Assembly: GCA_039822165.1 (NCBI GenBank)
Contig: JBCBMS010000017.1
Span: 59,713 to 123,712 of the forward strand
DNA: 64,000 nucleotides
Source: Chloroflexota bacterium
Lineage (GTDB): Bacteria > Chloroflexota > Anaerolineae > Aggregatilineales > Phototrophicaceae
Reading direction: 5' to 3'
This document shows, one piece after another, positions 45,430-45,700 of the stretch. The stretch's first letter is position 1, and every line of letters starts with the position of its first letter. The translations under genes and the position numbers were made by a program. The notes under the pieces were generated by a model. That model saw only the letters and a program-made list of their open reading frames with translations. It was not told the origin of the DNA and did not search any database.

Positions 45430-45700
45430 TGTCGAAACTGATATACCAGAATTGGTCTGTTGCGCATCTCACAGGAGCATGTTAGCCTGTTGAACATGAA
45501 TAAGAGACACGTCCCCATTACCCTGAATATGTCCAACTACTGCTGTTACCCCTGTTGCCGCATGATGTGCGGTGTTTTGTGTTCGGCAGGGCAAGGGCAG
45601 CCAGGGGTGCAGTAGCGTTCCGGGTTTACGTGTAAGAAACCACGAGAGCCAGTCGTCCTGCGATTGGCTCTTTTTATTTACACAGAAAGGCAGCATCACA
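45430..45700 (+). promoter_or_regulatory. structured leader with terminator-like hairpin (GAGCCAGTCG...CGATTGGCTC + TTTTTATTT) ending 20 nt before the JAMM start; putative attenuator/riboswitch
   Basis: The hairpin plus U-tract at 45637-45680 sits immediately upstream of the SD and ATG at 45702, with no room for a promoter in between. Confidence 0.45.

Follow-up and report, generated by a model that had tools for sequence, protein, structure and literature searches.

A conserved Cys/Met-codon leader with an intrinsic terminator, a probable attenuator of a methionine operon in Chloroflexota

Leader-peptide attenuation is a mechanistic class known since the 1970s, its classical examples being trpL, hisL, thrL, leuL, pheL and ilvL of Proteobacteria; methionine genes are classically under S-adenosylmethionine (SAM) riboswitches, T-boxes or protein repressors. 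Here we analyze the leader of a methionine and sulfur-carrier gene cluster in a 64,000-nucleotide (nt) stretch of contig JBCBMS010000017.1 from an uncultured Chloroflexota bacterium. This whole stretch is called the window (WIN where it is listed with other loci), and coordinates refer to it. The original prediction for this site was a structured leader of ~270 nt, whose terminator hairpin would be read through conditionally by a riboswitch, T-box or leader-peptide mechanism.

The closest described systems come from other phyla. The trp attenuators of Corynebacterium and Streptomyces have been described, and Cys leader peptides without an obvious terminator have been predicted in Actinobacteria (PMC1262725). 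In mycobacteria, leaderless polycysteine small open reading frames (sORFs), the "Cys ribulon", act on translation, and Ms5788A unmasks a Shine-Dalgarno sequence (SD) (Canestrari et al., 10.1101/834739). Upstream of cysS in Rhodobacterales, the uORFC-8-2 motif consists of a predicted upstream open reading frame (uORF) with tandem Cys codons in a stem, followed by an intrinsic terminator, and ribosome stalling leading to read-through has been proposed for it (PMC8632094). Our literature search found no description of a Met-codon leader peptide, nor of such an attenuator in Chloroflexi.

In the window, a promoter, an unannotated open reading frame (ORF) rich in Cys and Met codons, a short conserved box and an intrinsic terminator follow one another directly in front of the first gene of the cluster, which encodes a JAMM/Mec-type protein. 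We estimate a probability of about 0.68 that this module is a functional Cys/Met-sensing leader-peptide attenuator of the trp/his type in front of the met operon. Its parts are as follows.

45460–45465, forward strand: −35-like hexamer TTGCGC; T(T)GC.. stands at the same place in 10/10 leaders, 17 nt 5' of the −10 element
45480–45488, forward strand: extended −10 element TGtTAGCCT (TGn + TAnnnT); TGnTAnnnT stands at the same offset in 10/10 leaders
45496–45615, forward strand: leader ORF of 39 codons plus TAG, unannotated, MNKRHVPITLNMSNYCCYPCCRMMCGVLCSAGQGQPGVQ; frame conserved in 10 loci
45540–45559, forward strand: region 1, the Cys-codon segment, which pairs with region 2 in untranslated RNA in minimum free energy (MFE) folds
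45541–45582, forward strand: regulatory codon cluster CCYPCCRMMCGVLC, a stretch of 14 codons that includes 6 for Cys and 2 for Met
45556–45583, forward strand: internal hairpin TGCCGCATGATGTGCGGTG with a U-rich run, inside the regulatory codons (CRMMCG); conserved only in WIN, L164 and L165
45588–45615, forward strand: region 2, the 3' end of the leader ORF, with two alternative partners, region 1 and the 5' arm of the terminator (the latter pairing being the candidate antiterminator)
45632–45643, forward strand: box GTAAGAAACCAC, consensus GGTAAGAAnCCAC, in 9/10 lineages and degenerate in L168
45644–45679, forward strand: intrinsic terminator (regions 3 and 4), a 13-bp stem with a 3-nt loop, then TTTTTATTT
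45646–45655, 45656–45660 and 45661–45670, forward strand: the same hairpin as read from the sequence, with 5' arm GAGCCAGTCG, loop tcctg and 3' arm CGATTGGCTC
45685–45704, forward strand: SD GAAAGG, and ATG of the operon's first gene (JAMM/Mec type)

With the classical attenuators this locus shares a short ORF with clustered codons for the pathway's final product, a stop codon some 30 nt ahead of an intrinsic terminator that adjoins the first structural gene, and potential 1:2, 2:3 and 3:4 pairings; two of the relatives compared below (L166 and L169) have the textbook pattern, in which region 1 resembles region 3 and region 2 resembles region 4. It differs from them in that the codons are those of Cys and Met, the ORF is apparently leaderless rather than SD-led, the host belongs to Chloroflexota, the window's antiterminator is weak and there is an extra conserved box. 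The resemblance to the Cys ribulon is that a sulfur amino-acid operon opens with an unannotated, probably leaderless sORF containing consecutive Cys codons, and that the ribosome is the proposed sensor of Cys-tRNA. However, the genes downstream here are those of homocysteine/methionine rather than of cysteine proper and, unlike in Ms5788A, the output element is a conserved intrinsic terminator and the SD is predicted to be open (0.79). Moreover, Met codons are co-enriched here, in contrast to the mycobacterial and actinobacterial Cys leaders, the phylum is different, and no sequence homology to those leaders was detected.

The uORFC-8-2 motif, which we compared by its description only, likewise has a Cys-codon uORF followed by an intrinsic terminator, but it controls a cysteinyl-tRNA synthetase gene, has two Cys codons and no Met, is SD-led and belongs to Alphaproteobacteria. 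With SAM riboswitches and Met T-boxes, too, the 5' leader of genes for methionine biosynthesis holds a conditional terminator; unlike in these, no aptamer and no specifier or T-box was detected in our leader, where the ribosome would read tRNA charging as the signal. New here are the presence of both Cys and Met codons, an intrinsic terminator together with probable leaderless initiation, the phylum and the pathway, in a module that probably works like a classical attenuator.

Related loci were fetched via homologues of the JAMM protein. Broad genome and metagenome scans were dominated by distant phyla and gave four useful relatives, and the informative leaders came from exact-protein look-ups. 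The leader set comprises 10 loci (WIN, L164, L165, L166, L167, L168, L169, L174, L175 and L178) from about seven lineages, with a JAMM identity of 74–100%. The module (promoter, Cys/Met-rich ORF, box, terminator and SD-ATG) is present in 10/10 loci in which metY follows JAMM, and absent in 6/6 JAMM loci without metY following, namely L004 and L172, which have other gene contexts, and L005, L029, L084 and L181, which contain JAMM-ThiS-..-MoeZ only. Either TAAGRANNYMNNARAGCCA or the promoter-ATG signature could serve to recognise the module in other genomes.

The terminator hairpin with its T-run has exactly the sequence and positions originally described, directly before the SD and ATG. A pattern scan extends its stem to 13 bp (45644–45672), and the T-run TTTTTATTT that follows on the 3' side ends at 45679. 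From there to the JAMM ATG (45702) we measured 22 nt, with the SD GAAAGG (45685–45690) inside, where about 20 nt and no room for a promoter had been predicted; a gap of this length is indeed too short for a promoter. Folded alone, the hairpin has an energy of −20.2 kcal/mol (z = −5.93), and 0/200 shuffles were as stable. A loose terminator pattern occurred twice in a 3-kb stretch against 2.6 expected, which is not rarer than chance; the significance of the hairpin therefore rests on its energy and conservation.

This conservation is high: across the 10-leader alignment 92.9% of the cells of the terminator helix are paired, compared with 30–53% in slid controls, and the relatives have compensatory G-C to A-U changes. 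The distance from the T-run to the JAMM ATG is 17–37 nt across the leaders, and the terminator adjoins the SD in all of them. In the read-through transcript the JAMM SD is predicted to be unpaired with a probability of 0.79, and control of termination is thus favoured over control of initiation. That read-through is conditional, as had been proposed, fits a terminator that stays with JAMM-metY whatever the upstream gene and adjoins the SD, whereas the regulation itself we infer.

The leader ORF begins with the ATG at 45496 and ends with the TAG at 45613–45615, and contains 6 Cys and 3 internal Met in 38 codons. Pooled over the seven lineages, Cys and Met account for 46/219 leader codons (21%) versus 2.6% in the proteins of the window, an enrichment with P = 8e-28 against window proteins and P = 6e-19 against random codons. 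Cys-Cys (CC) occurs twice in the window peptide, and consecutive Cys are absent from the peptides of L167, L168, L175 and L178. Between WIN and L164 the core differs by synonymous changes only (TGC/TGT, CCC/CCG) and the flanks vary. The most widely shared core, common to four lineages, is ATGATGTG(C/T), which encodes Met-Met-Cys. Outside the Met/Cys core the peptide drifts, its length ranging from 23 to 39 aa and its number of Cys from 2 to 6 across the leaders; a kept core with a drifting remainder is what a sensor ORF, rather than a functional peptide, would be expected to show. The peptides read from the relatives, with the identity of the JAMM protein in each locus, are given below; MNKQVTTPANRMFCCMCCTAMCG.. 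is a further peptide among those read from the 10 loci.

L164, JAMM identity 94%: MNKQHVPTNSNMPDDCCYPCCRMMCGVLRSAGRGQPGMQ
L165, JAMM identity 87%: ..CCYPCCRMMCGVLCS..
L166 and L169, JAMM identity 81% and 78%: MNKQ(V/A)TTPANRM(F/S)CCMCCTAMCG..
L167, JAMM identity 81%: ..LCRPYMCIYG..
L168, JAMM identity 79%: MYPTLTCPMMCHS..
L174, JAMM identity 79%: MRNEMTFYPCPCCPCMVMYG..
L175, JAMM identity 76%: MNTQTAIRPQFMMCSCTFMCSS..
L178, JAMM identity 74%: MDKTHFTTSTCTPMTRCMSMMMCS..

The identities for L167 and L168 are full-length values; a figure of 84% covers only the N-terminally truncated gene calls. The stop codon stands 26–32 nt before the terminator arm in 9/10 leaders and 38 nt before it in L169, which has acquired a new TAG 9 nt further upstream. 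A scan of the window for other Cys/Met sORFs behind the same promoter motif returned only the ORF at 45496, and no match was found for a 51-aa in-frame extension of the leader peptide in a collection of 5.8 billion proteins. As a separate observation, TAG ends 10/10 leader ORFs; among the long ORFs of the window, roughly counted, 15/36 end in it. A structural constraint might underlie the uniform stop, or a particular release behaviour may have been selected for.

The promoter was compared in an ungapped alignment of the 10 leaders anchored on the leader ATG. The order T(T)GC.., 17-nt spacer, TGn, TAnnnT, exactly 7 nt, ATG is common to 10/10 leaders; in the window the TG lies at 45480–45481 and TAGCCT at 45483–45488, and no SD is conserved before the leader ATG in this alignment. 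A TANNNT about 12 bp before the start codon is a signature of bacterial leaderless genes (PMC3160421). Because TGnTAnnnT stands exactly 7 nt before the ATG, and in view of the published signature, we infer a transcription start at or beside A45496, which would make the leader 206 nt long. The mRNA of the leader ORF is thus probably leaderless, as judged from sequence. The transcribed leader is then probably 206 nt (45496–45701) and not ~270 nt, given the conserved promoter at 45460–45488. A leader-peptide mechanism had been among the options considered at the outset; the unannotated ORF, the promoter and the probable 5' end had been missed.

A further block, AAACTG(A/G)TATA(C/T)C (45435–45447), lies about 50 nt upstream of the leader ATG and is conserved only in WIN, L164, L165, L166 and L169. 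It might serve as a regulator site or as a second, extended −10-like promoter.

The attenuator that we propose would operate as follows. A sigma-70-type extended −10 promoter (45460–45488) would start transcription at or beside the A of the ATG at 45496, and the ORF would be translated as a leaderless message. With Cys-tRNA and Met-tRNA plentiful, the ribosome would reach the TAG at 45613–45615 and cover region 2, the 13-bp terminator 28 nt downstream (45644–45679) would form, and transcription would stop before the JAMM gene. If either charged tRNA were scarce, the ribosome would stall on the Cys/Met codons, mask region 1 and free region 2, which could then pair with the 5' arm and loop of the terminator before the 3' arm is made. 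The terminator would be pre-empted in this way, and RNA polymerase would enter JAMM-metY-metX-thiS-like-moeZ. In its most specific form, this is a leaderless dual-input attenuator in which one ORF reads the charging of Cys-tRNA and of elongator Met-tRNA and drives a terminator before a protein-thiocarboxylate-dependent methionine pathway; for that form we consider the chances evenly balanced.

The identity of the antiterminator is more doubtful, and the pairing of the ORF 3' end with the terminator 5' arm is a tentative, model-based candidate that we place somewhat below even odds. The transcript 45496–45681 folds with −71.4 kcal/mol (z −3.98), and in the window the 1:2 duplex (45540–45559 with 45596–45615) reaches −32.5 kcal/mol. 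Across the leaders the energies are −15 to −32 kcal/mol for 1:2, −9 to −23 kcal/mol for 2:3 and −16 to −22 kcal/mol for 3:4, and the 2:3 energy matches that of 3:4 in L167, L174, L175, L168 and L178. Region 2 ends 2–13 nt before the stop codon in most leaders and would therefore lie under a terminating ribosome. Good candidates for a 2:3 antiterminator are found in the relatives (L165–L169, L174, L175 and L178), with −15 to −23 kcal/mol, and lineages with differing terminator loops (L168, L178 and L175) have matching region-2 sequences. The pairs are given for six relatives.

L167 and L174: region 2 GGGAC(U/C)GCUGG with region 3 CCAGUCGUCCU, −15.8 and −15.3 kcal/mol
L175: region 2 AGGGCGCUUGGU with region 3 GCCAGUCGCCCU, −17.4 kcal/mol
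L169: region 2 GGCGAUUGGC with region 3 GCCAAUCGUC, −20.5 kcal/mol, z −4.2
L168: region 2 GUGGGG.UUGGC with its own CCCCAC loop as region 3, −23.5 kcal/mol
L178: region 2 CGCGGGGAUG with region 3 CAUCGCCCGCG, −19.9 kcal/mol

Antiterminator folding was modelled on transcripts cut before the terminator 3' arm, with a ribosome footprint placed on the Cys/Met codons. In these cut transcripts the terminator 5' arm pairs with the ORF 3' end, and in 9/10 leaders the ensemble probability of upstream pairing of the 5' arm is greater when the ribosome sits on a Cys/Met codon than when it sits on the stop codon (0.60 versus 0.39 in WIN).

Several results weigh against the attenuator as proposed. The 9/10 comparison is weakened because part of the drop in upstream pairing that a footprint close to the arm causes is trivial. 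Full-length MFE folds with ribosome footprints keep the terminator at every ribosome position in 10/10 leaders; since the terminator always wins there, any antitermination must be kinetic, as in trp, and folding at equilibrium speaks neither for nor against it. The 2:3 pairing of the window, AGGGC (45588–45592) and GGC (45596–45598) with GCC (45648–45650) and GUCCU (45655–45659), is the poorest of the set, with 5+3 bp and −11.4 kcal/mol, and does not outperform shuffled sequences (fraction 0.92). When regions 2 and 3 were exchanged between lineages, no clear covariation result emerged, and RNAalifold on truncated leaders yields a consensus 2:3 helix of −0.11 kcal/mol with one compensatory pair. 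In addition, the leaders of L167 and L168 carry only 2 Cys plus 1–2 Met codons, and the conserved GGTAAGAAnCCAC box has no role in the model.

Two structural observations can be added. The second stem-loop mentioned in the original prediction, GCCGCA-tgatg-TGCGG, lies at 45557–45572 and is terminator-like, with TTTTGTGTT after it; the internal hairpin 45556–45583 is possibly a pause hairpin. When the terminated leader is folded to its MFE, UGAAUAAGA at the 5' end (nt 2–10, including the UG of the start codon) pairs with the U-run (45496–45506 with 45669–45680), a predicted pairing that could hide the start codon in terminated transcripts or be incidental.

Among the other explanations, the one that survives best, though we consider it unlikely, is that the ORF is an independent small-protein gene for a functional Cys-rich peptide (metal- or redox-binding, or the precursor of a ribosomally synthesized and post-translationally modified peptide, RiPP) with its own terminator, the JAMM operon being expressed only by constitutive leakage through it. 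The ORF does have its own promoter and terminator, its peptide is Cys-rich, E1-like and JAMM enzymes are encoded nearby, and MoeZ weakly matches a leader-binding model of thiazole/oxazole-modified microcins (TOMMs; E 4e-6). However, beyond the Met/Cys core neither sequence nor length (23–39 aa) nor Cys number (2–6) is conserved, the module goes together with metY, and no lineage has room for a promoter before JAMM (17–37 nt from T-run to ATG). Nor is there a YcaO or other RiPP enzyme in the cluster, where MoeZ, ThiS and JAMM match the known sulfur-carrier set.

Somewhat less probable again is control by the leader ORF through another route, either translational attenuation with SD unmasking as in Ms5788A or Rho-dependent polarity. 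The closest described system, the leaderless polycysteine sORFs, uses SD sequestration (10.1101/834739), and the weak antiterminator of the window leaves room for such a route. Yet the ORF is separated from the gene by a strong conserved intrinsic terminator; the predicted open state of the JAMM SD in read-through RNA argues against sequestration, and under Rho polarity the uncoupling induced by stalling would favour termination, the wrong sign for a biosynthetic operon.

About as improbable is antitermination or termination mediated by a protein, with a regulator bound to the GGTAAGAAnCCAC box in the manner of TRAP, PyrR or LicT and a minor role for the ORF. After the terminator, the box is the best conserved primary-sequence element; it was found only in these leaders among 180 loci, and it is conserved in sequence rather than in pairing, a consistent pairing partner having been sought for GGTAAGAA and not found. 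Against a regulator of this kind, the cluster contains no candidate gene for an RNA-binding regulator, L168 is without the box yet keeps the ORF and terminator, and the Cys/Met codon bias would be unexplained. The box might serve as a pause site or factor site, or pair as an A-tract with the U-run.

Still further down stands a metabolite-binding riboswitch (for SAM, S-adenosylhomocysteine (SAH) or another sulfur metabolite) or a T-box, with the Cys/Met ORF incidental. Met operons are controlled by SAM riboswitches or T-boxes in many phyla, and the leader is strongly structured (z −3.98) and holds a conserved box. It varies in a coding-like manner between lineages, however, with the frame and the Cys/Met codons kept and the rest free, and it has no conserved multi-helix aptamer, RNAalifold finding almost nothing besides the terminator. 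The original prediction had failed to match SAM-I or T-box by eye, and the Rfam covariance scans gave the same outcome: no relevant family at the gathering score in the 64-kb window; at E ≤ 10 in 45300–45800 a spurious long noncoding RNA (lncRNA) fragment as the sole match, with no SAM-I/II/III/IV/V/VI, SAM-SAH or T-box; and no match at the gathering score in 20 JAMM loci (11 Chloroflexota/Anaerolineae relatives and 9 from other phyla). On these scans the SAM riboswitch and the T-box were rejected, so that of the three mechanisms initially offered the leader peptide fits, with its conserved Cys/Met ORF, and the other two are unmatched in Rfam.

Finally, that the hairpin terminates the upstream gene (45061–45414) and JAMM has an unrecognised promoter is barely credible: that gene does share the strand and lacks any other terminator-like site, but the hairpin lies 230 nt past its stop codon, only 22 nt separate the T-run from the JAMM ATG, and in the relatives the upstream neighbour varies and is sometimes on the opposite strand (an epimerase in L167, citrate synthase in L175), the terminator staying with JAMM, so that it is not the upstream gene's. 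Of the outcomes named at the outset as refuting an attenuator, neither an upstream-gene terminator nor a lack of conservation in relatives held, the module being found in 10 JAMM-metY loci.

If the leader-peptide attenuator is confirmed, it would be the first described for methionine biosynthesis and the first in Chloroflexota, and would unite the leaderless Cys sORFs of Actinobacteria with the terminator-based attenuation of Proteobacteria, which have so far been separate; the GGTAAGAAnCCAC box may then be an additional undescribed element (a pause or factor-binding site). A leader that gauges Met and Cys by how fast the ribosome moves would control met genes in a different way and would extend attenuation to two amino acids, and the link to the mycobacterial Cys ribulon suggests that leaderless sORFs with a sensory role predate a single genus or extend beyond it. 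For annotation, a conserved unannotated sORF with its promoter, in a compact module of ~220 nt, can be flagged in Anaerolineae-like metagenome-assembled genomes, and the JAMM-MetY-MetX-ThiS-MoeZ cluster is supported as a sulfur-amino-acid-regulated unit.

The genes downstream of the leader, which are the set known for protein-thiocarboxylate-dependent homocysteine/methionine synthesis (HcyS/HcyD/MetY and CysO/Mec systems), are the following.

45702–53281, forward strand: the whole cluster proposed to be regulated
45702–46133, forward strand: JAMM/Prok-JAB protein
46233–47564, forward strand: O-acetylhomoserine sulfhydrylase / homocysteine synthase (MetY)
47642–49377, forward strand: AAA_15/AAA_21 ATPase and DUF3226 protein
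49382–50581, forward strand: MetX
50715–50987, forward strand: ThiS/MoaD-like carrier ending AGGR
50990–51451, forward strand: DUF4395 protein
51520–51924, forward strand: thioredoxin
to 53281, forward strand: MoeZ-type protein with ThiF and rhodanese domains

The AGGR end of the carrier runs one residue past GG, which fits a need for trimming by the JAMM protease encoded first in the operon. The AAA ATPase, with a weak PtuA/RecF-like N-terminus, and DUF3226 form a pair between metY and metX (47642–49377) that occupies the same position in at least three other lineages (L001; L167, 4305–5776; L178/L179, 4944–6429) and is absent in L166, L169, L174 and L175, where metX directly follows metY. 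It looks like a defence-type two-gene cassette lodged stably in the operon, and would be co-transcribed under the attenuator.

Elsewhere in the window, a small ORF MVKASSSSAICCCMCCPAAS... with a Cys/Met run (55324–55461, forward strand) overlaps longer ORFs on both strands and is probably an out-of-frame artefact. Phototrophicaceae-type loci with JAMM-ThiS-DUF4395-Trx-MoeZ and without metYX (L029, 3700–4000; L181, 2700–3000) have a different leader of ~300 nt. Its promoter, TTGACA-17-TACACT, is close to the consensus, and it contains a small ORF, MNEYDPHHLYRLHSTRCSRLT, and several hairpins but no clear T-run terminator. In Pyrinomonadaceae, an apparently conserved small ORF, M(F/Y)..ACCIR.., located ~200–350 nt upstream of JAMM in L034, L039, L060, L062, L118, L143 and others, was rejected as an RNA element, being the out-of-frame C-terminus of a Cys_Met_Meta_PP gene (..SLGDVFTSVLHPATASHRDL..RISVGIE..). 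This Cys_Met_Meta_PP gene stands directly upstream of JAMM, in an order reversed relative to the window.

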